Positions 1 to 63,998 of a DNA stretch of 64,000 nt are shown here, one piece after another; position 1 is the first letter of the stretch; the number at the start of each line of letters is the position of its first letter. Source of the stretch: a virus. The stretch lies in the IMG/VR virus record IMGVR_UViG_3300025070_000024, positions 16,917-80,916 of that record; one strand, written 5' to 3'. The notes under the pieces were generated by a model. The model had not been told where the DNA came from and ran no database searches. It saw nothing but the letters and a program-made list of their open reading frames with translations. A program made the position numbers and the translations under genes.

Positions 1-60
1 TTTAATAAAGCGACTGATTTCAGCTGCAATAGTTGCAGGAGTTTGTTTTTTCTTTCTCAT
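1..60 (-). CDS. 5' part of next virion/cargo gene (partial, runs off window)
   Basis: ATG at 60 overlaps the TGA of the upstream gene (ATGA coupling); open frame MRKKKQTPATIAAEISRFIK to the edge. Confidence 0.6.
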   Translation of the reverse strand, partial: MRKKKQTPATIAAEISRFIK

Positions 61-3000
61 GAGATCATTTTCAAGAATTCGGACGCATCAATCTTCATGT
101 CTGTAGCATCGCTAAATACATATGGACTTTCAACTGGCTGACCTGTAATAGGATCAATATAACTTTCAGTAGCACCTTGTGTCAAAACACCTCCGCTTTC
201 ATGCTTCGGGCCTTGAACTTGATACATATTAGATGCTACCTGTTTGTAGTTGCCATTATTAGTAGCCATAGGAGGGTCTTGAGGACTTGCCATCATCATC
301 TCCCCACCTTCAGTTTCATATTGCGGTGCATTCATAGCACCCCCATAGTTAGCAACAGTGTTGTACCCTGCTCCCCGCTCGTTCATTACTGAATTTACTT
401 GCTGAGAATAGTCTGCCAAAGCTCCTCTAACTGCCTCACCTGTTTGCAGATTAGCAGCATTGTCTGCTTCATTTGCAAGACGACGATCCCGACGCTGCTT
501 TACCAACCCTGCGATACCTGCTATTGCCGCAATAGGAGCTGCCCCAGGTATACCTAGCATTAAAGCTCCTGCGCCACCCTTAAGTGCGTTGCCTGCAAAA
601 GTTCCAAAGCCGTCATCTCCACTAGTCATAGTGTCAGCAGCCTTTCCAACTATTTGATTTACTCCAGCTGAAGCAAGATTCTTCAAGCCACCTGCCATTT
701 TTGTGAAATCTGCTATTCCCGTGCCTCCAGGATTCAGTAATTGATTGACGAGCTGAGCACGTCCCTCTTGACCTGCTGCTCCTTTTACATTATCAAGCAT
801 AGAATTTAATCCTCCTGATTGTTGCATCTGATTAAAAATGCCTTCCAAATTTTGAGGGTTCATCGGTGCATTAGAGTTGCCTCCAGGAACTGGAGTAAAC
901 TCAGGAATATTTAGTGCAGGCATAGAAGCATTCATAGAGTTACTAGCTTGATCAGCCATAGAACCCTGAGATCCAAAAGGAGTGCTATTTCCTGCGCTTT
1001 GAGCTTGATCTAAAACTGGCTGCAACAAATCCTGAGAGTAGTTAGCAGTATTGCCTTGAGGATAGCTCAACATTCTGGCATTCATACTTTGCTCTGGCAG
1101 AGGCTGATTGTACTCAGGATTACGAGGGCCAGCTGTATTTTGATTATTTATTGGACCACCAGGATATTGCCCAGTATCATTCATACTGAACAGAGGGAAT
1201 GTGCTAGTGTCTTGATCTTGGAAAGGAAACCCAAAAACACCATTACCTTGAGGATCTCCAGCAGTAGGTTGTGCAGGTCGATTTTGAGCATGGTACGCCA
1301 TGAGCTGCTGCTCATTACTCAACGTTGGGTTATTCATAATGAAGTCCATAGGCAAGTTCATCGCCCGTGGCTGCAAAATATGTTGCTTCAGTCCTTGACC
1401 TAAAGACATACCTGTAGGCACAGCTAAAGTTGTATCACCAAACTGCCCGTAATGCTCTGTAAGCTCTCCTACGTTAGCCGAGGTATCTTGGCTCCCTAAC
1501 ATGCCTAACAGCTCTGACACAGGACTGCCATAATTTGCTTTTGGAGGCGCAACTCGTGGTTTGGTCATCGTACCTCCGAAAAACCCTGTAGGTAGGTTTA
1601 GGTGTTTTTGAAGTGATGGTGGGATATCTAGCTTAGGAGGCGTAACTGGTGATACTGGTGGTTGGGTTTGAAACCTAAGCAACCCATCATTAGTTTTTAA
1701 TCTCATAACACCTTCCATTGCACGTTTACCGGTTAATTTATCTGGATACCCCATACCTCGAACTCCTAAACCAGATCGAACTTCATCCATATACTCTACA
1801 GGGTTTGTATATGCTCCAGCTTGGTTCTGTCCCGGGAATGGACGAATGGGACCATACCGAACTTGTAATTGCTGCAAGTTCTTTGGACTAGAAGCCGAAA
1901 GCTGTGGGACGTTTTCTAAATCGTAGAAATCAAATTGTCCCGTGTTTTTATTATAGTTGATATTCCCTCTGATATTGTCTAAGTCCAGACCGATACCTCT
2001 GTCCCGAAGCTGTCTTACTTGTTTCAGAGCTGATGCATAAGCATCTCTTGTCGGGAGTTCAGGTGCTCCTGGAACTGCTTCTTGTTTTTGCAAGTTCCTC
2101 ATTATAGTTAAGTCATTCTGACTACGTAGTGGAGCTGCTACATTTGGCATATCATCAGCAATCTCGCTAGTCCTGGCTATGAAATCATCAGTTGTTCCAG
2201 AATACCTGCTAGTCGGCAAGACAGCATTAGGATTGCTAAATTCTTGGTGAGGAAATTTTATTGCATAAGGACTATTCTTGAACTCATGTACAGTTCCAAA
2301 ACCTCCCGATCCTAACTGTTCACCAAAGGGTGTTTTAGCATAAAGCTCCGCATCCAATCTATCCGCATGCCCCCAATTAAGACTATTGTTTCTACTAACG
2401 CCTTCCGCAAGTTGATTGAATCCTGCCTCTGGATTCAAGTCCATTCTCATTGGATCAATAGGTTTATTGTAACCGAATAAAAAATGAGGCTTGTCTCCAA
2501 CATTTCTAAATCCCATAGGATTTTTCAGTGCAGGGTTTGCCTTATACAGATTTTTTACTCCAGTAACGCCTGCTTGCTTTAGAGCTTGTCTTGTTCCTGC
2601 TCCTGTTATACTTATTCCAGGTATTGCTCCAAGCGCATTTAATCCTGCACCAATAAAATTACCTTGACTTGCATCCCTTAAAGCATTCTTCCCATAGTTT
2701 ACCCAAGCAGCAGGGTTGACTAAATCATTTGCCACCTGCCCAGCTATAGTACCTTTTCCTTTGGCCTGATCGAACTCTACTTGAGAAGGCATTCCTTCTA
2801 CGCTTGGGTCGAGGATTGTTCTAGCAGTGGTGATTGGGTTAGCTGCCATCTCTAAAAGAGACGGATTGTCCTCTATGATATTGCCGTCTTCATCTACCTC
2901 AAAATCCCCTTGGGATATACGAGGCATTGCATTTAATTGAGACAGTGCATCTGAAGCAGCTAAATTTTGCTGCAGTGCATCTAGACCTCCCGCTCTTTCA

Positions 3001-3212
3001 ATCTGTTGAGCGATTAGTGGGTTGTACCCAGAATTGGTATCAGAAGTAGCTGTTAACGGCTTTAGTGGGTCTGTTTCACCACCAAGTTCATATGTGTAAT
3101 TTTTAGGACGCGGTTTTGCCTTAGAGCGATTTTTGCTCTTAGACTTTAAACCCAACACTACTTCAGCGAGGTTCCTTTTCTCACACCTATGACCGTTAAA
3201 CTTTTTGCTCAT
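57..3212 (-). CDS. Large virion cargo/ejection-like protein with internal protein-kinase-like domain
   Basis: 1051 aa, downstream of tail genes; C-terminal ETEGGE...GPKHESGG motif resembling crAss-like cargo proteins; Gly/Ala hydrophobic segments; internal LGSGGFGTV / YAIK / D-x5-N / DFYD kinase-like motifs. Confidence 0.65.
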   Translation of the reverse strand: MSKKFNGHRCEKRNLAEVVLGLKSKSKNRSKAKPRPKNYTYELGGETDPLKPLTATSDTNSGYNPLIAQQIERAGGLDALQQNLAASDALSQLNAMPRISQGDFEVDEDGNIIEDNPSLLEMAANPITTARTILDPSVEGMPSQVEFDQAKGKGTIAGQVANDLVNPAAWVNYGKNALRDASQGNFIGAGLNALGAIPGISITGAGTRQALKQAGVTGVKNLYKANPALKNPMGFRNVGDKPHFLFGYNKPIDPMRMDLNPEAGFNQLAEGVSRNNSLNWGHADRLDAELYAKTPFGEQLGSGGFGTVHEFKNSPYAIKFPHQEFSNPNAVLPTSRYSGTTDDFIARTSEIADDMPNVAAPLRSQNDLTIMRNLQKQEAVPGAPELPTRDAYASALKQVRQLRDRGIGLDLDNIRGNINYNKNTGQFDFYDLENVPQLSASSPKNLQQLQVRYGPIRPFPGQNQAGAYTNPVEYMDEVRSGLGVRGMGYPDKLTGKRAMEGVMRLKTNDGLLRFQTQPPVSPVTPPKLDIPPSLQKHLNLPTGFFGGTMTKPRVAPPKANYGSPVSELLGMLGSQDTSANVGELTEHYGQFGDTTLAVPTGMSLGQGLKQHILQPRAMNLPMDFIMNNPTLSNEQQLMAYHAQNRPAQPTAGDPQGNGVFGFPFQDQDTSTFPLFSMNDTGQYPGGPINNQNTAGPRNPEYNQPLPEQSMNARMLSYPQGNTANYSQDLLQPVLDQAQSAGNSTPFGSQGSMADQASNSMNASMPALNIPEFTPVPGGNSNAPMNPQNLEGIFNQMQQSGGLNSMLDNVKGAAGQEGRAQLVNQLLNPGGTGIADFTKMAGGLKNLASAGVNQIVGKAADTMTSGDDGFGTFAGNALKGGAGALMLGIPGAAPIAAIAGIAGLVKQRRDRRLANEADNAANLQTGEAVRGALADYSQQVNSVMNERGAGYNTVANYGGAMNAPQYETEGGEMMMASPQDPPMATNNGNYKQVASNMYQVQGPKHESGGVLTQGATESYIDPITGQPVESPYVFSDATDMKIDASEFLKMIS

Positions 3213-3538: not shown

Positions 3539-3844
3539 TTAACATTTCCAACGTCTACGTGCTTGACGTATACGTGAGTTAGGGTTGTTACGAGTTTTTG
3601 CACTGCTACGTTTGAGTTGTCCCAAAGAGCGAGCACAATATGATTTACGACGTCCTGCAGCCTTACTACCTTTTTTCACTTTTCCAGTTACAGCAGTTTT
3701 TAATTTACTTCCTGGATTTGCTTTACGATATGCCCGGACACCTTTTTTGGTCATCCCTGCACCAGATTTAGTAGGTCTGTAGTTCGCAGATTTTCCTTTC
3801 GTTGTTTTACGAATAGGAGTAGACTTTTTTCGTTTAGCAGGCAT
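3539..3844 (-). CDS. Small highly basic phage protein
   Basis: 101 aa Lys/Arg rich; RRKSYCARS...NSRIRQARRRWKC motif recalled from marine phage proteins. Confidence 0.75.
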   Translation of the reverse strand: MPAKRKKSTPIRKTTKGKSANYRPTKSGAGMTKKGVRAYRKANPGSKLKTAVTGKVKKGSKAAGRRKSYCARSLGQLKRSSAKTRNNPNSRIRQARRRWKC

Positions 3845-4256: not shown

Positions 4257-7200
4257 TCACCCCCTAGCAGTAGGTCTAACTTTCGCAGATATATCATACA
4301 AATATAATCCAATACCATCTTGACCGCTATCGCTACTTTTTATATACAATCGAATTACAGCATAGTCAGATTGTATACGCCTTTGCTCATACCACTCCAA
4401 TGTGCTACTAATATTAGTAGTAATCAGCTCCAAGTCTTCAGTCAAAAAAGGAAGAGATCTATCAGCAACAAGATCCCTAAAGCCATTAAAGTGCCAGCGT
4501 TCATGAGTGTGCCGCAAATTGTGTCCTGTAGTAAGACCTTCAGGAACAACTAAGTCGATAAACCCGCTGCAGTGCGTATCTGTATACACCAACGCTTTAG
4601 TGAAGGTATTTTCATAGTGAGTAAATCGCTCTTCTGGAAAAGACACAACACGAGTGTCCCAGTTAAAGCTGCTAAATACTCCTGATTGCCCTATCGGTGA
4701 TGGAGCATCAATTGTAGACTCATGCACTACCCCGTGAAACTTTCCAAAGGTGCCTGCTTGATTGTGAAACTTAGCAGAACGCACTTGTGGAGATAGAGTA
4801 CCATCGATATTAATATTTCGAACGCGCAGAGCATACACAGTATTCAGACCTTCTAACAAAGCTGTACTGTCATAGGTATGTCTACTAACCCACGCTTGGT
4901 TCAAGTAGCTGTAACTAATGAATTCATCTTTAGATTCAATACCTGCATTCTCATTGTACTCATCTTGAGTGTCGATTAGATAGCCTGCACTAAAATCTCC
5001 TGTGTAATCTGCGTTTCTGATTAAGAGTATAACTCTATCGTACCGAGAATCATACGTAGCATGAAGGCCTGGGAAGAATTTGAAAGTATTAGAGGAAGAG
5101 AAAGTTGTATCTAGTTTCAGTTTTTCCTGAAACCAATCTTTCATTCCAGACCTACTAATTTCTTTCAGGTCTGTTCCTGCTAAAGAAAAAACTTTGCGTT
5201 GGTCTGCGTCAACAAAGAAATACCCATGAGGCGTTAAAACACAAGATAGCAGATGTTGTGTGCCTGCATAGCCTTTATCGCTGGGTCGTATCTCTACAGG
5301 TTTTGTAGCCAATATGTCTGATTGACCTAAAGCTAGCTCTCCTGCTGTAGTCGATATCTTCTCCTGACCTTGAGTCATAAATAACCCCCGCTCATGGTGA
5401 ATAATAAGACGATCACCATAACCTTGAAGATTTTCAATCTCGCCACGGTCACGCTGCATATCAAAAAACTCTATGGGCTTAAACGCGATAACGTTTGTAG
5501 ATACTCCTAAAGACCCAATTTCACTACTGCGGACAATCCGATGGGGAAAATTATTTACGAATGTTTGCCCACTGCTAAAGATTCCTACAGGCTGATATAC
5601 ATTTTCTGCATACAACCGTGACGGGTAATCATATAGTTGATCATTACCAGGGCTAGCAGCTCTAAAAACATATTCGTTAGCTGATAGATTGACAGGATTG
5701 TCTAACTCATAGTTCAGATACTCGAACTTAGTGCGACCCTGAACCCTGTAATTGTATACTTGCGAAAGAATACCACGAGTAGAGTCTACGGTTGTGACTC
5801 GATTAGTACTTAGTAAATCAACAAGTTGCGTGGCATTGTTTCCGTTCGCTACAGCATCAACACCTACAGGAGCTGTTAGCCTATGCTTATAGAAACTCCT
5901 TACAATATCCCCAGCAACAAATGTGGTATCTATGCTACCTACATTAACAGATTCCCCATCAATTTGACCCAGCTCTGCAGAAGCTAATTTAGTGTAGGGA
6001 ATCACTCCTGTACACGCTACTAAATCTTGTGCAGCATAATTTTGGTAACAGGTAAATAGATGCTGTTTCAGATTTGTAATCCATATCGGATTCGAAGCCT
6101 GCGCTCCTGTATGTCCTGCAGTTAAGTTGCTGTTGATTCTAAAACCTGTGCCTGGATTCGAGGTGTTCCCTAAGTGCGTACCACTGGTGCTTTTTAAAAA
6201 GTCTTTCCAGTCTGTACTGCTTGTCGAATTCGCATATTCAATGTTAAACCCTATACAAGTCTCACAAAACCTATTGTCAATTTCTAACTCATCATCGATA
6301 GCGTTCGTTTCAACGTATCGGACAGTGCTGACCTTTCTGATTCGTACATTATTAGTAAGACTTACCTGCCTTCCATTCTCAGGAAAGAAAGCTTTGCCTC
6401 CTACCGTAAGGGCATTTGGAGCATTAAGTATATCTGAGTCACCCCAGTAACCATTGTCTGAATTATTAGTTACAAGACCATCTCCTATAAGCCCTACTTC
6501 ACCAGTAGAACTTAAACCATAATCAATCCTATAATCGATGTTTTCAATGTAAGCCGTTTCAGGAAGATTTACTCTAGACCGCAATGCCTCAAAGCAGTAC
6601 ATCCTACCCGTGGTTTCCTTTATCCCCGCAAACCAAGCATCATTATTAAGCTGGTCTGTCGCACTAGATATCGTGTCTATGTCAGAAACTTCTTGAGAAT
6701 TGTACTGAGGCAAGTTCATACCATGAGAACTTGTATAGTCATGGTAATCAGTTACAGTTTCAGCAATGTTAGAGTAGTGATTGTAGCTGCCATGAATCAA
6801 AATACTCTGTCCAATATGCAGACTATTGGTCAAATCTCTTTTAGCATGAAACATTCGTACACCTACGTACCCCGCAGGCATAGGAACATTTGCAAACCGT
6901 ATCCGCACTAAATCTGTAGCATCGCCCAGTATTGGGATTTTGTGATGACGAACTGGCTCACTAGCAAGAGTGTAGTCTGTAATACTGCCGGAGTTATCAG
7001 AAGTATCTTCTACGGTCCATTGCTGAACAGGGAAGTTTGAAGGATACGTTTCTGCAGAGTTTTCCCAGTAACCGCAAACACCTACGCCACTTGTCACACC
7101 AGTAGGAGTGTAAGCACTTGCATCTCCAAAGTACTCATGGGTATTCCGGGTATGGAAATACTTCATACCACTAACAGCTATATCGTTATCGTCTTCGAGA

Positions 7201-8408
7201 TAACTCAGACTAGAGTTTGCTGCTATCAACGATGCATCTGTAGATCGTATAGTGCCAGAAGCTCCTGTTTCTACAGCAGTAAGATGAGGCTGTCCTATTG
7301 ACCTTGGTGGAGACCCAGGAATATGGAAGGCTGGAGTTAGCGAACCGTCCTCACGCACATAGCTAACATAAAAAGCGTATACCTCTCCAGGTTGAAAGGC
7401 AAGTCCTCCAAAATTTAAGTCTTGTTCCTTGTCATTGCCATTGAAGCCTACTGTAGATACACCGTCTTCTGTGTGACCTCCATAGTATGTTTGATACAAT
7501 ACCTGAATACGATTGGCGTACTGCTGAAGATCAGTAACATCTGCAGTTGCAACATTGCCCATGTACAACCGATTTCCTTGTAGAGTCAAGGTTTTAGCTT
7601 GGCTGTAAACAATGTTCTGAACTAGGATTTCATCTAAAGAAATATCTTTTTGTAAGATGCCAGTCAGAGTAATAGTAGTTTCATTACCCTCATAAGGAAA
7701 GAAACCGGTAATGCCTGTGCTGACAGAATCATCATATACCGAAACAAAAGCTGCTGCTATGTAAGAATAATCAGAGTCTAAGTTGCTTAGCTTCAAAGAA
7801 ATAGTTTTCCCAGAATCATAGACGACATATGGTCCATTTAGATTATTGAACTCTAGGTAACTCTGGTCTTCGTAGGCATAAGCAATCGCGATATAGTGAG
7901 TACCAGAATTAAAAAATCCTTGACCGCCTAAAGAGACTTGGTTCTGTTCTATGTAAACAGGGTCGTGCGTAGGGCTGACCAAACTAGGTACAGCAGTGGT
8001 GTCTACATTTAGGTATTTCGGAGGAGAAACATCGTCCGTAAGAATAACAAAAGTTTGCCCAGAAGTAGTTTTAAAAGAGACTGCATCAATAACTGCATCA
8101 TCTGAAAATCCAAACACTCCGCTAGACAAAATTGTAGTCAGCGTCCCAACAACTTTTACTACGTAGTTTGTCGTACTGTCTGGGCGTTTGCAAAAAAGAA
8201 TGATTCCATCGTCAACTAGCCCACAGCCACCTAAGATGTAAAACTTAGGAGCACTATCGTCTGTAACACTTGAGTCATTTGTGAACCCGGCTTCTTGTAG
8301 AAGAGAGTCCATGTGCTCTCCATAAACAAAGTTTACTGCGTCTATGTAGAGACCCTCTGATACTTTGCTAGGATGTACATCCCGCATCATTCCTTTTAGT
8401 GGTCTCAT
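4257..8408 (-). CDS. Tail stabilisation / muzzle (nozzle)-like protein
   Basis: 1383 aa, MRPLKGMMRD start, beta-rich; crAss-like synteny after ring protein and IHF-like gene. Confidence 0.7.
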   Translation of the reverse strand: MRPLKGMMRDVHPSKVSEGLYIDAVNFVYGEHMDSLLQEAGFTNDSSVTDDSAPKFYILGGCGLVDDGIILFCKRPDSTTNYVVKVVGTLTTILSSGVFGFSDDAVIDAVSFKTTSGQTFVILTDDVSPPKYLNVDTTAVPSLVSPTHDPVYIEQNQVSLGGQGFFNSGTHYIAIAYAYEDQSYLEFNNLNGPYVVYDSGKTISLKLSNLDSDYSYIAAAFVSVYDDSVSTGITGFFPYEGNETTITLTGILQKDISLDEILVQNIVYSQAKTLTLQGNRLYMGNVATADVTDLQQYANRIQVLYQTYYGGHTEDGVSTVGFNGNDKEQDLNFGGLAFQPGEVYAFYVSYVREDGSLTPAFHIPGSPPRSIGQPHLTAVETGASGTIRSTDASLIAANSSLSYLEDDNDIAVSGMKYFHTRNTHEYFGDASAYTPTGVTSGVGVCGYWENSAETYPSNFPVQQWTVEDTSDNSGSITDYTLASEPVRHHKIPILGDATDLVRIRFANVPMPAGYVGVRMFHAKRDLTNSLHIGQSILIHGSYNHYSNIAETVTDYHDYTSSHGMNLPQYNSQEVSDIDTISSATDQLNNDAWFAGIKETTGRMYCFEALRSRVNLPETAYIENIDYRIDYGLSSTGEVGLIGDGLVTNNSDNGYWGDSDILNAPNALTVGGKAFFPENGRQVSLTNNVRIRKVSTVRYVETNAIDDELEIDNRFCETCIGFNIEYANSTSSTDWKDFLKSTSGTHLGNTSNPGTGFRINSNLTAGHTGAQASNPIWITNLKQHLFTCYQNYAAQDLVACTGVIPYTKLASAELGQIDGESVNVGSIDTTFVAGDIVRSFYKHRLTAPVGVDAVANGNNATQLVDLLSTNRVTTVDSTRGILSQVYNYRVQGRTKFEYLNYELDNPVNLSANEYVFRAASPGNDQLYDYPSRLYAENVYQPVGIFSSGQTFVNNFPHRIVRSSEIGSLGVSTNVIAFKPIEFFDMQRDRGEIENLQGYGDRLIIHHERGLFMTQGQEKISTTAGELALGQSDILATKPVEIRPSDKGYAGTQHLLSCVLTPHGYFFVDADQRKVFSLAGTDLKEISRSGMKDWFQEKLKLDTTFSSSNTFKFFPGLHATYDSRYDRVILLIRNADYTGDFSAGYLIDTQDEYNENAGIESKDEFISYSYLNQAWVSRHTYDSTALLEGLNTVYALRVRNINIDGTLSPQVRSAKFHNQAGTFGKFHGVVHESTIDAPSPIGQSGVFSSFNWDTRVVSFPEERFTHYENTFTKALVYTDTHCSGFIDLVVPEGLTTGHNLRHTHERWHFNGFRDLVADRSLPFLTEDLELITTNISSTLEWYEQRRIQSDYAVIRLYIKSSDSGQDGIGLYLYDISAKVRPTARG

Positions 8409-59792: not shown

Positions 59793-62700
59793 TTACTGTG
59801 GCTTTGTAGAGATGTTGTACTCCATACGCTGCAATGCATTTCCAGCAGGGAATAACTTTCCTCCATGATGCAGCAGGCGTGACCTTCCTGCATATACACC
59901 TGTCGGAATAGTCGCGTCTCCTGCCATCGTCTGCATAGTAGCTTCTGCAAACTTAAACAAGTCTCCTAAAGTTTCCGTAGTAGGCATTCCTTTTGTGACT
60001 TCCTGATAGCTTCTAGGATTGTAGAAGTAACTAAGGTCATTCTTTAATCTATCTGCGATGTTCATCAAGAAAATGAGCATGCCCTTTGCATCGTCATCTT
60101 CTTCATCATCTAAAGCGACCTTAAAGAAAGCAGCCATCATCATTAAGGACATGTACTGATACAACTTAGCATATGCTTTTCGAGCATTCTCTTCAGTAAC
60201 AGGGTTAGAGAAATCTAACTCCGCATGCCTACGGTATATAGGAATCAACATCTTAGGCAGCTGCGCAAACCATTTGCCTTTCTCTCCCCATATAGAGGGT
60301 ATCATACCCTGCACTTCTCGCTCTAAATGCAAATCATAGATTTTACCTTGGGCTTCTTGAGCAAAACCTTCTGGAACCCAGCTCTTAAATTGCATAAGAG
60401 CCGGACCTAACATAGTCTGTTTCAAGGCAATAGGACTTTGAGGGTCGTAGTTGCCATGAATGTTCATGTTAATTTGGTTGATCTTATTGGTCAGCTTAGT
60501 CCATTCTTTTTCTCCTGGCTTAAAGCCTTCTGCTTGAATAACACCCTTACCATCCATTAACTCCCAAGCATTGCTCTCGCCAATTTTAGTCCCAAGCAAA
60601 GCAGCGATAGTAGCGTGACCATACGTGAAATACTCTGAGCTACGTTGCAGTTCATATACGCCAAAGGCTTTAACAATCTGATCAAACGTAGTCTCGTCGT
60701 CAAGCGGATCATATCGAACCTCCGTAAAGTCTTTCAATACATCAAGACGCAGCATCATGTTCTGAATCTTCTTTGCTGTTTCTGTTTCAGACAACCCAGA
60801 CCTAAGTGTAGCCGTATGCAAAGACATGTGGAGCATAGTTCTAAACGCCTTATCTGCATCACGCTCATCGAAGTCTGTTCTCCTAGCAGCGTGTTGATAC
60901 ACAGCCATCGAGCCAAAGATGTAGTTTGTGAATGCAGCAGGTACGTTCCAACCCATACCACGAGCTTGAGTAAACTTAGTTAGACCTCTGAGAACCTTTC
61001 CTAAATCAACTTTACTGCCTATAGCATTTATCTTGTCTATAACGGGGTCTACAATCTCAATATGCTGCTCCTCAGTTATCCGACCATTCTCTAATCTTTC
61101 ATCTGCTTCTTTTATTATTTCTTCTAGCTCTTTCTTTTTTTGCTTTTCCTCAAGTGTACGAGCGCGTTTTGCACCTACTAAGTACTTCTCGTTCATCTGC
61201 TTAGATTGACCATAAAACTCTCTAATGCTTGCGCTAGCCGCCTTCGTTATGTTTTGTCTAGCATCGCCACTCTCTCGTACATAAGCTAATCCTGTAAGCT
61301 TATTGATTCTCTTTTCTCCCTTACCATTCGTAACAGAGACTCCAACATTATTCAAAGTTGTTTCGGTAATCCTTACAATATCCTCTACCTCATTCTTTGC
61401 CTTATAAGTAGTTGCCATCATGGTAAACTTCTTATACACTTTGTCCATATTGAACTCTTGCTCTTTCAATTCAGTAAACCTCTTCATGAAGTGAACAGGT
61501 ATGTCTCTTCGGAACTCTCCGGTTACAGGATCAATCAGCCGAGCCTCTAACTCTTCATCATTACTTGTAATACTTTCGACAAATCGACTGTGCTGTTTTA
61601 AGACTACTTGCTTAGGACTGATGCTATCCATAGCCATCTTCTTCCTGATAGCAGGTAAAAACAATCCCTGCTCTACAGCATGAATGTTTTCTGCGTAAGT
61701 GTCCAGCGGCAAGCTTGCCATCATCTCCTTAAACTGGGACCGCAAAAAGTTGTAGTACGCTAACGCATCATCTTCCCTTTGCAGATCTTCAAACCTTTCA
61801 TCTAAGAACCCAGTCTCTTTACCCACTACTTTAGGTAGAGGCATATGATACAAAAATTGGTTTTTAGCATTAGCCGGACGCAGCTCTTTGCCACTAAAGT
61901 ATTTATAGTGAGCAGCAGGACTGTTCAAGTTTACCCAAGCAATCTTCTGTGCTTTGCGACTTTCTTTAGCATCTTCGCCTGTCGTATTCATATCGATGAC
62001 ATCAAACGCTGCCACCTTAGCATCAGCATAACGATCCATCAACTTGTCCTGTCTAGCTAGAAGCTCTCTAGTACCAACCTTACCAAACTTCTTTTCCAAC
62101 TGAAGCATGTATGCTGGGTCGTCTTTGCGCGTAACCTCTCGAATGTCTAGGTTGTACAAACGCTCCACATCGATACGATCAGTATGTTCAGTAAGCCACT
62201 CGTAATAGTTCTTCCATCCAGACTCACTGTTTTCAGTAAGAGCCACTGTTCTACGCTTATGCTCTTCAAGACTCCACTTGCCGCTTACAGGACTGATAAT
62301 TTTAGGAGTAGGTTTCCCGTCGGCGTCTAGCTCTACCAGTCCCTCCCAACCATGCTTCTTATAGTAGTCAGTTTTCTTAAACGCAGCACTCAGAATTTCA
62401 TAAGCCTCAACACGCGTAGTATAGTCAGTCTTCTGACCGTCATATGCAACCTTAAGAATATCGTCTAAGAAAGAAAGCTCAATCCTACCTTGACGACCAG
62501 CAGACATCAAGTTGGCCTTGAGGAAATTGATAGCCTCCATAGTCTCAAAGCTGTCGTCCGTGATCTGATCTGCTGTAGGACTACCCGCATACAACTGCTT
62601 AGCGTACTTGCGTAATGCCTCACGAAGGATGTCTAAGTAGTCATCTTGCATCGCATTAGCACGACCCACCAAGTCCCTAACTTTTTCTCGGCTCTCACGG

Positions 62701-63998
62701 TTCAACTTAACCTGTTTAGCAAACCTACTGTAAAACGCAAGAGCAGTCTGAGCACTGAGAATACTCGTCATGTAAGCCTTGTTAGGCATCTTACCTGCCA
62801 TACGATACATAACATTGTCGATGTCCTCAAGCTCTCGCTCAACCATCATCAACACAGACTTTGCGGTTACACTATCATCACTTAGTGCTTCTATGTCTGC
62901 CTTCTCTTTAGCTATCCTTCTATCTATACTTTTCAGCGCACTGTTGTTTCCTGCAAACTTTGCTCGTACAGCTTTAAACTCTTCCATACGAATCTTCTTA
63001 TAAGCAATCATAGAATCTACATTCCGAACGTCTCCCTCTTTACGAGGAGTAAACATTCTTTTTTTAGACTCTACTTTACTTTTTTCAGAATTAATAAAAG
63101 GTACCTTGGCACCCAAAGACCTTGCTCTCTTGCTTATTACAGAAGCTCCTATAGCTGAGATTTCTGTAGCAGCATTAGCACCAAAGGTGAGGTTCATTGC
63201 TTCGAGCATATCAGCTGCAAGCTGTAGGATTTTATTCCATACACTAGTACCTCTAGCTTTAGACAATCTCTCCCCAACCTTACTGTCAACTTTTGCTAGC
63301 TGCTCAGCAAAGCGAGCGTTGGACATCGTTTCCGATAGGAGTTCTTTTATATCTGTCAAGCCATAAAACTTGTCTTGATTCTCCTGCTGGGTAAAAAAGT
63401 TGTAGTCGCTTTGGGCATCTGCATCAAAATCAGACAGACTCTTCTTACGGAATTGTATATCCTTAAATACTCTAGTTCCTCTCAAGAACTTTTGGTATTC
63501 GCTAAACTTCAAACCCATTGCAGCTAGACCTTCTGCGCTTGTAAGCTTCCGCCGCAAAGTTTCAAGCTGCTGCACCTGCTGCTTCACACGCGGATCTTTA
63601 CTAGTGACTGCCCACACAGTATATGCGTGAACCAGCTCATGAGTAAACTCTGCATCTGTAATATCCGCACGAACATCGATAGTATGCGTTTTAGAGTTGT
63701 ACGTAGATGGCGCATTCATATTAGACAGAACACGTATCCGTACTTGCTTTTCTTTTGGAATCATAGACTCCATCAGCATAATCTTCTCTAAAACCGCGTT
63801 TAGCTTTGTCCCGTTACGGTTTACAAAAGCTTCTACAGGACTTTCTTTTACAGGTACTACAACTCGAGTCCTAGGAGAAGCAGAGAAGAGACTGCCATCG
63901 CCATCATCGTCAAAATCCATATTATCATAGTCTGCAGCTTCAGTACCTGTAATTAATGAATCTGTAGTTTTGTCCTCACCTTCAGTACCAAAAGCTTT
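59793..63998 (-). CDS. C-terminal part of giant virion protein with zincin motif (possibly RNAP-associated cargo); partial
   Basis: Frame stays open from 63920 to the window edge; FTHELVH (HExxH) near 63627-63641; long helical region; IHGNY...LMQFKSWVPE motif. Confidence 0.7.
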   Translation of the reverse strand, partial: KAFGTEGEDKTTDSLITGTEAADYDNMDFDDDGDGSLFSASPRTRVVVPVKESPVEAFVNRNGTKLNAVLEKIMLMESMIPKEKQVRIRVLSNMNAPSTYNSKTHTIDVRADITDAEFTHELVHAYTVWAVTSKDPRVKQQVQQLETLRRKLTSAEGLAAMGLKFSEYQKFLRGTRVFKDIQFRKKSLSDFDADAQSDYNFFTQQENQDKFYGLTDIKELLSETMSNARFAEQLAKVDSKVGERLSKARGTSVWNKILQLAADMLEAMNLTFGANAATEISAIGASVISKRARSLGAKVPFINSEKSKVESKKRMFTPRKEGDVRNVDSMIAYKKIRMEEFKAVRAKFAGNNSALKSIDRRIAKEKADIEALSDDSVTAKSVLMMVERELEDIDNVMYRMAGKMPNKAYMTSILSAQTALAFYSRFAKQVKLNRESREKVRDLVGRANAMQDDYLDILREALRKYAKQLYAGSPTADQITDDSFETMEAINFLKANLMSAGRQGRIELSFLDDILKVAYDGQKTDYTTRVEAYEILSAAFKKTDYYKKHGWEGLVELDADGKPTPKIISPVSGKWSLEEHKRRTVALTENSESGWKNYYEWLTEHTDRIDVERLYNLDIREVTRKDDPAYMLQLEKKFGKVGTRELLARQDKLMDRYADAKVAAFDVIDMNTTGEDAKESRKAQKIAWVNLNSPAAHYKYFSGKELRPANAKNQFLYHMPLPKVVGKETGFLDERFEDLQREDDALAYYNFLRSQFKEMMASLPLDTYAENIHAVEQGLFLPAIRKKMAMDSISPKQVVLKQHSRFVESITSNDEELEARLIDPVTGEFRRDIPVHFMKRFTELKEQEFNMDKVYKKFTMMATTYKAKNEVEDIVRITETTLNNVGVSVTNGKGEKRINKLTGLAYVRESGDARQNITKAASASIREFYGQSKQMNEKYLVGAKRARTLEEKQKKKELEEIIKEADERLENGRITEEQHIEIVDPVIDKINAIGSKVDLGKVLRGLTKFTQARGMGWNVPAAFTNYIFGSMAVYQHAARRTDFDERDADKAFRTMLHMSLHTATLRSGLSETETAKKIQNMMLRLDVLKDFTEVRYDPLDDETTFDQIVKAFGVYELQRSSEYFTYGHATIAALLGTKIGESNAWELMDGKGVIQAEGFKPGEKEWTKLTNKINQINMNIHGNYDPQSPIALKQTMLGPALMQFKSWVPEGFAQEAQGKIYDLHLEREVQGMIPSIWGEKGKWFAQLPKMLIPIYRRHAELDFSNPVTEENARKAYAKLYQYMSLMMMAAFFKVALDDEEDDDAKGMLIFLMNIADRLKNDLSYFYNPRSYQEVTKGMPTTETLGDLFKFAEATMQTMAGDATIPTGVYAGRSRLLHHGGKLFPAGNALQRMEYNISTKPQ

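Follow-up and report, generated by a model that had tools for sequence, protein, structure and literature searches.

A predicted minimal kinase-like domain on an exchangeable cassette of a probable crAss-like cargo protein

P0001 is a protein of 1051 amino acids (aa), encoded by a single open reading frame (ORF 57..3212, minus strand) in a 64,000-nucleotide stretch of viral DNA, here called the window (bases 16917-80916 of the 80,916-bp IMG/VR virus record IMGVR_UViG_3300025070_000024). The initial annotation of this DNA described a protein-kinase-like domain behind a pre-toxin-like motif at window 1790-2670, which corresponds to aa 182-475 of P0001, and proposed that the phage injects a pre-made kinase from a swappable slot. 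Our analysis confirmed the observation: the protein encoded in the cargo slot of this crAss-like phage carries a domain of a minimal kinase family, and the cassette that holds it can be exchanged. The interpretation was partly supported. Overall, we lean modestly towards P0001 being an ejected crAss-like cargo protein with a most likely active kinase on an exchangeable cassette, phosphorylating host proteins.

The reduced kinase-like core

The core and its key positions in the window are listed below. Row counts refer to alignment A2, which consists of window aa 270-520 and 38 further core segments (39 rows in total) that are 29-89% identical to the window's.

1911..2348, minus strand: predicted minimal protein-kinase-like core, aa 289-434 (invariant residues; AlphaFold2 predicted local distance difference test score, pLDDT, >90 over most of it; kinase matches)
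2295..2312, minus strand: Gly-rich loop GSGGFG, aa 301-306 (conserved Gly columns)
2256..2258, minus strand: K319, the beta3 ATP-binding Lys of YAIK (39/39 rows)
2100-2102, minus strand: M371 of TIMRNL, in beta5 (39/39 rows)
1983..1985, minus strand: D410, the catalytic-loop Asp just after beta6, within GIGLDLDNIRGNINY (38/39 rows)
1962..1964, minus strand: N417, the catalytic-loop Asn just before beta7, within GIGLDLDNIRGNINY (39/39 rows)
1920..1922, minus strand: D431, the DFG-equivalent Asp (YDL) of FDFYDLE (39/39 rows)

Beyond these positions, conservation runs through the whole core. In the Gly-rich loop, G301 and G303 are present in all 39 rows and G306 in 37, followed by V308 in beta2 (38 rows). 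An acidic residue occupies the alphaC position D343 in 30 rows. The beta4 columns N357, A359 and P361 are kept in 37, 38 and 36 rows, respectively, and further conserved positions are G406 before beta6 (38 rows), N413 in the catalytic loop (35 rows) and N421 after beta7 (36 rows). The distance from N417 to D431 is 14 residues. Conservation of this kind across 39 rows shows that the motif set is more than a chance likeness. Every string that the initial annotation had quoted as motifs in kinase order within the ORF was present at the checked positions and is kept in relatives. Its catalytic-loop D...N held in part: N417 and an Asp are indeed conserved, but the conserved Asp is D410 and not D412, which is Asp in only 14 of the 39 rows. 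The consensus of this loop reads R-D-[KR]-G-I-x-L-D410, and the spacing from Asp to Asn is 6 residues in 31/39 rows and 7 in the window, compared with 5 in canonical kinases.

The AlphaFold2 model built on A2 reached a mean pLDDT of 80.2 and a predicted template modelling score (pTM) of 0.75, with 133 residues at a pLDDT of at least 90. In the model, the elements follow one another in the order beta1, Gly loop, beta2, beta3 with the Lys, alphaC, beta4, beta5, alphaE, beta6, catalytic Asp, Asn, beta7, beta8 and DFG-like Asp. The Gly loop and the Lys map to model strands 27-34, 37-42 and 47-52, the last of which contains K319. D410 comes directly after beta6 (model strand 138-140), N417 directly before beta7, and D431 after beta8. 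Only short helices are predicted beyond the DFG-like strand. Likewise, conservation across the whole kinase family ends a few residues past D431, and the later short helices are conserved only in closer relatives, suggesting that two or three such helices are all that remains of the C-lobe. Taken together, A2 and the model point to a kinase that lost its C-terminal subdomain and retained its active site. The three features checked for the protein-kinase-like superfamily were all found, namely the Gly loop with the beta3 Lys, the catalytic Asp and Asn with the DFG-type Asp, and the bilobal topology.

Structure comparison agreed with the kinase-like fold proposed in the initial annotation. Foldseek against the PDB returned 21 matches at an expectation value (E) <=1e-3; the matches listed were kinases only, and the top rows had a probability of 1.00. 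They include Rio1, Rio2, RIOK3, OspG, NleH1/2, HopBF1, TkArkI, CDC7 and DAPK, with APH and Mph enzymes lower in the list. VIA-align against 48,161 chains gave 35 chains with Z of at least 8, and its best 50 rows were all protein kinases; among them are NleH1 (4lrj_A; Z 9.2, root-mean-square deviation 3.7 A, 143 aligned of 160), Rio2 (Z 8.9) and OspG (4q5h_A; Z 8.7, root-mean-square deviation 4.0 A, 145 aligned of 169). The named neighbour clusters in the Atlas all belong to the kinase clan (YrbL, T7-kinase, Pkinase, OspG, APH and ABC1/RIO1), and BFVD gave 23 matches at E<=1e-3, mostly annotated viral kinases. Searching PDB sequences with the A2 profile matched SteC (E 7e-4) as well as B-Raf and CK2alpha (E about 0.015) over the segment from the Gly loop to beta3.

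Several results pull in the other direction. The Foldseek template modelling scores (TM-scores) are modest, at 0.3-0.55, and are highest when normalised to OspG and NleH. The VIA-align scores are middling; models that lack a true match often reach a best Z of 7-8. In the PDB profile search, the first row was the designed repeat protein 'Pizza', which we rejected as spurious, no stretch passing alone. The threshold of the Pfam family Pkinase (PF00069) was not reached; it matches 2 of the 39 segments, with a best E of 0.097. The unrelated families LEDGF, DUF1699 and HEPN_AbiV score as well as Pkinase or YrbL on these segments, so Pfam gives no support either way. In addition, tblastn found no match in 50,697 deposited phage records, either with the whole of P0001 or with the kinase segments alone. 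Given the caveat on Z, our fold call leans on the invariant residues, the topology and the uniform match lists together, and not on Z alone. On this combined basis, the core very probably has a protein-kinase-like fold.

Structurally, the model comes closest to two minimal effector kinases, NleH1 and OspG, and to Rio. NleH1/NleH2 (4lrj, 4lrk, 4o96) and OspG (4q5h, 4bvu) are the best structural matches, with Foldseek target TM-scores of 0.51-0.55. Like SteC (8jbi) and HopBF1 (6pwg), these kinases span about 160-175 residues, keep only a vestige of the C-lobe and are delivered ready-made into the target cell; all of them are bacterial type III secretion effectors that act in eukaryotic cells, and none is a phage protein. 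Compared with these effector kinases, to which identity is 13-17%, the family here has a longer catalytic loop without the His. Pfam OspG_kinase was not among the families matched by the 39 segments; the likeness to NleH/OspG is structural, together with the Atlas neighbour.

Whether such a core transfers phosphate is a separate question. The His and Arg of the HRD motif are missing from the catalytic loop in A2 and the loop is 1-2 residues longer than the canonical one, so that activity is not assured. The same deviations, along with the missing C-lobe, would suit a pseudokinase, that is, a nucleotide-binding or purely structural module for refolding, oligomerisation or channel assembly without phosphate transfer. 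It would also suit such a module that one relative, P0035, has Gly at the position of D410, and that cargo proteins have to unfold and refold, as described in PMC10172136. However, pseudokinases usually lose at least one of the Lys, the catalytic Asp, the Asn and the DFG Asp, and here these residues are kept in 38-39 of the 39 rows at an overall identity of just 29-50%, which points to selection for catalysis. We therefore regard a pseudokinase as improbable. With all residues for binding ATP and Mg and for phosphate transfer kept, the domain is most likely an active kinase, and judging from the sequence we hold its catalytic activity to be likely, with moderate confidence.

A second alternative accepts the activity and questions the substrate. 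The domain might phosphorylate a small molecule or an envelope component (for example a lipid, a precursor of lipopolysaccharide or peptidoglycan, a nucleotide that signals in immunity or a compound resembling an antibiotic), in the manner of APH, choline-kinase or Kdo-kinase-type enzymes, small-molecule kinases that have this fold too. Foldseek does list APH(2'') and the macrolide phosphotransferase MphH further down (ranks 42-50, probability 0.5-0.84), the Atlas neighbours include a cluster with APH, the missing C-lobe is the seat of the peptide-binding platform of protein kinases, and orthologues in the same gene slot act on the cell wall. By contrast, the best 50 VIA-align rows and the Foldseek rows at E<=1e-3 are all protein kinases, Rio included. 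NleH1 and OspG, the closest matches, show the same degree of truncation, and their PDB titles call them effector protein kinases; Pfam gave no APH or choline-kinase signature. A non-protein substrate thus has a low probability in our estimate, about that of a pseudokinase, and a protein kinase is the reading that we carry forward.

Gene order in the cargo block

The record that contains the window is rated 100% complete by CheckV, and its minus strand holds the late operon of a phage, with the large terminase (phrog_6681, E 6e-140), the portal (phrog_6547, E 1e-120), the major head protein (phrog_11589, E 4e-96) and several 'virion structural protein' families of PHROGs. The head protein matches 143 phage records, all at <60% identity; the best matches, at about 35%, are crAss-like phages of Bacteroides, alongside Flavobacterium phages. 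The record therefore belongs to a distant crAss-like phage. The features relevant to the position of P0001 are as follows.

57..3212, minus strand: P0001, whole gene, candidate cargo/ejection protein in the post-muzzle slot (gene position; one open frame)
4257..8408, minus strand: muzzle-like upstream neighbour, 1383 aa, homologue of crAss001 gp44 (phrog_15100, virion structural protein, E 3e-23)
498..587, minus strand: strongly hydrophobic, probable transmembrane segment of P0001, aa 876-905, followed by KQRRDRR (Kyte-Doolittle)
60..374, minus strand: conserved C-terminal domain of P0001, aa 947-1051 (YETEGGE...GPKHESGGV...SPYVFSD...LKMIS), common to all slot orthologues
L009 7520-11728, L010 2217-6230, L011 8249-11284, L012 3-1907 and L015 3780-6872: post-portal kinase-bearing genes on other crAss-like contigs, between the portal and head-protein genes

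The similarity of the 1383-aa protein to gp44 is colinear and weak (BLASTP E 4e-6 and 5e-5). Downstream of P0001 come proteins of 1227 aa and 540 aa and a giant ORF of >3902 aa (L002 1-11706, minus strand), which is homologous to parts of the crAss001 virion RNA polymerase, gp47 (E 3.5e-17) and gp50 (E 6.6e-15). A gp49-like ORF (window 59793-63998, minus strand, E 2.4e-8) lies at the other end of the record. Since the record ends do not join the giant ORF in frame, with the first stop 15 codons past the junction, we claim no single continuous gene across them. The order in Bacteroides phage crAss001 is gp44 (muzzle), gp45 (cargo 1), gp46 (cargo 2) and gp47. Mass spectrometry of crAss001 virions detected gp45, gp46, gp47, gp49 and gp50, and for gp45 a transmembrane helix is predicted and one domain is bound to the portal (Bayfield et al. 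2023, PMC10172136). The order muzzle, P0001, polymerase genes therefore puts P0001 exactly in the cargo slot, and the same order was found in the loci L004, L005 and L006. As a statement of gene location, the earlier description of a probable virion cargo protein stands: P0001 is encoded in the cargo block of a crAss-like phage.

The comparison with gp45 itself is mixed. P0001 has the same gene position, a similar length and a probable transmembrane segment where gp45 has a predicted transmembrane helix (PMC10172136). On the other hand, there is no significant pairwise similarity to gp45 (best BLASTP E 2.0), the gp45 record carries no annotated enzymatic domain, and the Pfam family crAss_CARG1 (PF25725), to which gp45 belongs, has no match in the genome at E<=10. 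The 540-aa protein likewise gave no significant BLASTP match to crAss001 gp46. The lack of a gp45 or CARG1 match counts against a cargo role, and the assignment draws on gene position and on a relative. Comparing the C-terminal domain (alignment A3) with gp45 and the CARG1 protein of contig L013 (alignment A6), both of them shallow alignments, hhalign gave a probability of 20.7% and E 0.0011 over 41 columns, and the motif GPxHExGGV...YVFSD is common to the C-terminal domain and the CARG1 alignment. The C-terminal domain may thus be related to the portal-binding crAss_CARG1. A complex prediction of the portal with the C-terminal domain scored 0.00, which has no bearing either way on binding.

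The relative is a 1691-aa protein of contig L013, in which the kinase-like domain studied here (aa 56-199) is fused to a true crAss_CARG1 domain (aa 453-575, E 4e-13; 2.7e-16 as positive control), and its gene lies upstream of a polymerase-like gene. We consider this fusion, indicated by sequence matches, the strongest link to the cargo and an indirect one. We then sorted 10 IMG/VR contigs with the domain by BLAST against the ORFs of this genome. In 4 of the 10 (L007, L008, L013, L016) the domain lies in the post-muzzle or pre-polymerase block, and in 5 (L009, L010, L011, L012, L015) it lies in a large protein directly after the portal gene; the remaining contig, L014, was not sorted to either slot. 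The post-portal slot is empty in this genome. Both the post-muzzle and the post-portal positions are typical of internal virion proteins.

These data also bear on whether P0001 is packaged at all. It could instead be a late cytoplasmic or membrane protein, with the kinase acting in the producing cell on assembly, lysis timing or superinfection exclusion. The dependence of the packaging argument on gene position and the missing gp45 or CARG1 match would agree with that, but the slot between the muzzle and virion-polymerase genes, the L013 fusion to a true portal-binding domain, the five contigs with the domain right after the portal gene, and the resemblance of the conserved ends and hydrophobic segment to ejection proteins all argue against it. 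We consider an unpackaged P0001 quite improbable. That P0001 is packaged and ejected, as its position indicates, is in our view probable.

Three further observations concern genes of these slots. A 101-aa ORF between the muzzle gene and P0001 (window 3539-3844, minus strand) matches DUF6321 above the cut-off (E 7e-11). The 1227-aa protein just downstream of P0001, outside the window (L002 13293-16976, minus strand), falls barely short of the Glyco_hydro_19 cut-off of 25.5 bits, with a match at aa 184-238 of 25.1 bits (E 1.8e-5), so a cell-wall hydrolase may lie in this next cargo gene and not in P0001. The post-portal protein of L015 has a weak Phage_lysozyme match at aa 36-157.

Exchange of the middle region

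The domain sits in an exchangeable position at two levels, the orthologous slot and the cassette. A word-indexed search gave 13 proteins at E<=1e-3, and alignment A1 is modular. One set of proteins shares the N-terminus of P0001 (MxKKFNG..RNL) and its last ~100 residues and has differing middles; the other set has unrelated ends and aa ~95-520 in common with P0001. The parts of P0001 involved are listed below.

3078..3212, minus strand: basic N-terminal leader, aa 1-45 (MSKKFNGHRCEKRNL...YELGG), common to slot orthologues in alignment A1
1695..2984, minus strand: mobile cassette, aa 77-506, comprising the upstream module, the kinase N-extension, the kinase core and a short C-extension
2598..2927, minus strand: upstream module, aa 96-205 (LEMAANP..., VNPAAWVNYG..., GNFIGAGLNALGAIPG), conserved, also in kinase-less proteins
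2616..2663, minus strand: GNFIGAGLNALGAIPG, aa 184-199, the Gly-rich second helix of a predicted hairpin, which the initial annotation called a pre-toxin-like motif
2427..2549, minus strand: kinase N-terminal extension, aa 222-262 (YKxNP...FxNxGDxPHW/FxxGY...DPxxxDL), conserved before the core
723..1655, minus strand: region of low charge rich in Q/N/P/G/S/T, aa 520-830 (composition)

At the level of the slot, three loci (L004, L005, L006) reached through the C-terminal domain share a gene order of 216, 152 and 266 aa, muzzle, slot protein, next gene, ~520 aa and giant ORF. The slot protein is a 1017-aa kinase form in L004, an 872-aa protein in L005 with a weak DUF2272 match below the cut-off (E 1.1e-4), and a 603-aa protein in L006 with Glucosaminidase (PF01832, E 3.6e-19). 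Two further proteins with the same ends as P0001 (P0014, P0103) carry DUF2272 above the cut-off, and three (P0008, P0012, P0100) gave no recognisable domain. As proposed in the initial annotation, then, the slot is swappable: the orthologue alignment shows a region that is not invariant, with cell-wall hydrolase domains between the shared ends of kinase-less orthologues. The near-identical phages L004 and L008 keep the kinase, so the swap is visible only at deeper divergence. At the level of the cassette, aa 77-506 are 76% identical over 442 aligned positions to aa 203-643 of P0005, and the remainders of the two proteins are without similarity.

The shared ends are themselves well conserved. 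The N-terminal leader is present in 11 of the 12 printed slot proteins, P0004 beginning later, and the C-terminal domain, found in 12 proteins, has 39 invariant columns among 6 rows. The hydrophobic segment, whose 19-aa Kyte-Doolittle mean of 1.88 is the maximum in P0001, is kept in the kinase-less orthologues P0008 and P0009 in A1. For the whole of P0001, 0 Pfam families matched at E<=1 and 0 PHROGs at E<=0.01, and Pfam detected no domain in aa 520-830. The best match of P0001 to PDB sequences was T4 lysozyme at only E 0.19. We did not accept a lysozyme domain here (aa 765-840, window 693-920, against lysozyme residues 37-118); this alignment leaves out the first 36 residues of the lysozyme.

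Short peptides mark the module borders. Aromatic-x-x-Gly-Gly peptides occur at aa 41-45 (YELGG, 3078-3092), aa 544-547 (FFGG, 1572-1583) and aa 953-958 (ANYGGA, 339-356). The GG after the N-terminal leader is kept in both backbone types in A1, and xxYGG or xxLGG stands directly before the conserved C-terminal domain in 12/12 printed slot proteins. Upstream of the cassette, PLIAQQIERAGGLD... (window 2928-3029, aa 62-95) recurs in the unrelated backbones of P0006 and P0011, directly before their cassette copy; the PLIAQQIERAGGLD peptide could be a junction tag or a recombination point. The alternative backbone (P0005-P0007, P0010, P0011, P0023, P0050) starts with a weak DUF192 match (E 2.7e-6 to 3e-4), of which only that of P0023 (27.9 bits) is above the 27-bit cut-off.

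A wider search helped to separate the parts of the cassette. Searching 1.84 billion representatives with aa 95-520, HMMER recovered 87 proteins at E<=1e-3, of which 32 reached E<=1e-10 and 15 reached E<=1e-30. Many matches span only query ~20-135, the upstream module, and many others only ~195-340, the kinase core. Matches to either part alone suggest that the module and the core are separable, in host proteins of 240-2132 aa. Among 98 stored proteins, a near-complete core is present in 50 besides P0001, and local phmmer placed the ~40-aa N-extension (query positions ~95-178) in the kinase-bearing relatives P0031, P0032, P0033, P0034, P0037, P0046, P0054 and P0056. One relative, P0015 (1855 aa), has two kinase-like cores (aa 1173-1347 and aa 1684-1838), the second of a divergent type also found at the C-terminus of P0011.

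The upstream module, of ~110 aa, is widespread in large phage proteins, whether or not these also have the kinase. Its consensus in 34 kinase-less proteins is LANPMTTL ... VNPAAW..YG ... EGN..GAGLNALGAIP. The AlphaFold model of aa 90-265 is of low overall confidence (mean pLDDT 55.0, pTM 0.31) and confident only for a helical hairpin at aa ~167-196. GNFIGAGLNALGAIPG corresponds to model helix 97-107 and has a moderate hydrophobicity, with a 19-aa Kyte-Doolittle mean of 1.33. Among the 34 kinase-less proteins, Pfam found DUF192 in 6, LysM in 4, YkuD in 3, ART-PolyVal and SET in 2 each, and SLT in 1. In both proteins with ART-PolyVal, this domain begins ~115-120 aa past the module (P0090: module 467-585, ART-PolyVal 700-837; P0070: module 507-580, ART-PolyVal 702-841), a spacing similar to that from module to kinase in P0001. 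The recognisable domains of the other module proteins lie far from the module, or upstream of it (SET, DUF192).

This arrangement raises the possibility that the GAGL..LGAIP segment is a true pre-toxin domain and the locus a polymorphic-toxin system, and the occurrence of the module ahead of different enzymes, the kinase here and ART-PolyVal in P0090 and P0070, would agree with it. Pfam, however, matched no pre-toxin family to P0001 at E<=1, and no pre-toxin domain is among the 8 families matched across the 34 kinase-less proteins. The neighbourhood of the gene showed neither an immunity-like gene nor an array of toxin cassettes. In 185,579 prokaryote genomes, two pattern scans found no relative, which is weak evidence of absence because these scans need exact short peptide patterns. 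We regard true pre-toxin membership as very improbable. What is left of the pre-toxin-like motif is an analogy: the idea of a constant piece ahead of a variable enzyme has some basis, in two proteins besides the kinase set, and the family membership is not supported.

Known counterparts, proposed action and meaning

The nearest concept to this arrangement is that of the polyvalent proteins, defined by Iyer et al. 2017 (PMC5512222) for phages and conjugative elements: large proteins of several domains whose genes lie among those for the virion and whose injection along with the DNA is predicted. The same source reports polyvalent kinases as a monophyletic group that has lost the entire C-terminal subdomain and occurs chiefly in (pro)phages of Verrucomicrobia-Chlamydia and Bacteroidetes. 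The architecture found here is of this kind: the gene lies among virion genes, the cassette recurs in an unrelated backbone, and the partners of the module include ART-PolyVal, SET, SLT, LysM and YkuD, with P0001 itself having one recognisable enzymatic domain only. The initial annotation had spoken of a polymorphic virion-effector system. The exchangeable enzyme slot in that proposal is upheld, but the system is essentially the 2017 polyvalent-protein concept, truncated kinases in phages of Bacteroidetes included (PMC5512222).

Compared with Kinase-PolyVal (PF18762) as described there, the family studied here is alike in lacking the C-terminal subdomain, in keeping the residues for ATP binding and phosphotransfer, and in occurring in large multidomain proteins encoded beside virion genes. 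The signatures of the two differ. We placed the PolyVal signatures on A2 from their description in PMC5512222, and the position mapping is our own. For the signature Glu before strand 2, position 305 here is Glu in only 7 of the 39 rows. At the signature Gln in the last N-lobe strand there is the invariant Met371, with Gln in at most 2 rows at neighbouring columns, and for the catalytic-loop His there is no conserved His in aa 403-417. PF18762 matched 0 of the 6 virus records carrying the domain (this genome and 5 others) at E<=10, and was not among the families matched by the 39 aligned segments. In the literature that we searched, no paper describes a crassvirus cargo protein with a kinase. 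The general idea is known for phage polyvalent proteins; the minimal kinase family here is undescribed and outside existing models.

Phage enzymes that act early provide further points of comparison. Phage T4 Alt and the virion RNA polymerase of coliphage N4 are precedents for head-packed enzymes that are injected with the DNA before phage gene expression. Unlike the kinase-like domain, T4 Alt (an ADP-ribosyltransferase) and the N4 polymerase have other folds and chemistry, and their packaging and injection were shown experimentally, whereas those of P0001 are inferred (PMC5512222 for these precedents). Phage_T7_kinase was found on 11% of the members of one Atlas neighbour cluster, and no sequence match to T7 gp0.7 was found here. 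T7 gp0.7 is an early product made after infection and is not a virion protein. It is a phage-encoded protein kinase that phosphorylates host proteins (PMC5512222).

A course of events can be proposed from these results. P0001 would be synthesised late and packaged, and it would leave the particle for the host before the DNA or together with it. Its backbone would consist of the basic N-terminal leader, the probably membrane-inserting hydrophobic segment and a C-terminal domain with a possible docking role at the portal. The orthologues have all three parts, and the middle is exchangeable, here a 430-aa cassette of a helical upstream module and the minimal kinase. The predicted kinase would consist of an N-lobe, the catalytic loop, the metal-binding Asp and two or three short helices replacing the C-lobe, and its targets would be host proteins, or less likely phage proteins, phosphorylated at the very start of infection before phage gene expression.

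The last step is where the proposal is most exposed. Orthologues have periplasm-acting hydrolases in the variable part, and if the kinase stayed in the periplasm it would be without ATP. The cassette would therefore either cross the inner membrane, perhaps aided by hydrophobic segments, or act elsewhere. That the kinase acts on host proteins in the cytoplasm early in infection, with both the substrate class and the site of action inferred, is plausible and remains tentative. A more far-reaching version treats the upstream module and the enzyme that follows it as a self-contained exchangeable injection unit, a phage counterpart of polymorphic toxins. The Gly-rich hairpin would be a delivery or membrane-crossing adaptor into the cytoplasm, the units would be traded between post-portal and post-muzzle slots, and the kinase would phosphorylate host defence or gene-expression proteins within seconds of adsorption. 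We consider this version unlikely as a whole.

The importance of the finding is limited by the fact that the concept was predicted in 2017 (PMC5512222) and by the fact that no cultured phage with the domain was found. The domain is small and defined, about 150-300 aa, and amenable to expression and assay. Among the phages that infect Bacteroidota, the crAss-like ones rank with the most abundant, and little is known of what they inject apart from DNA and their RNA polymerase. One backbone that carries either a kinase or a cell-wall hydrolase, together with one cassette that occurs in two virion slots, gives a concrete map of how injected enzymes are exchanged. If the proposal is true, a ready-made kinase in the cargo block would mean rewiring of the host before any phage gene is read.

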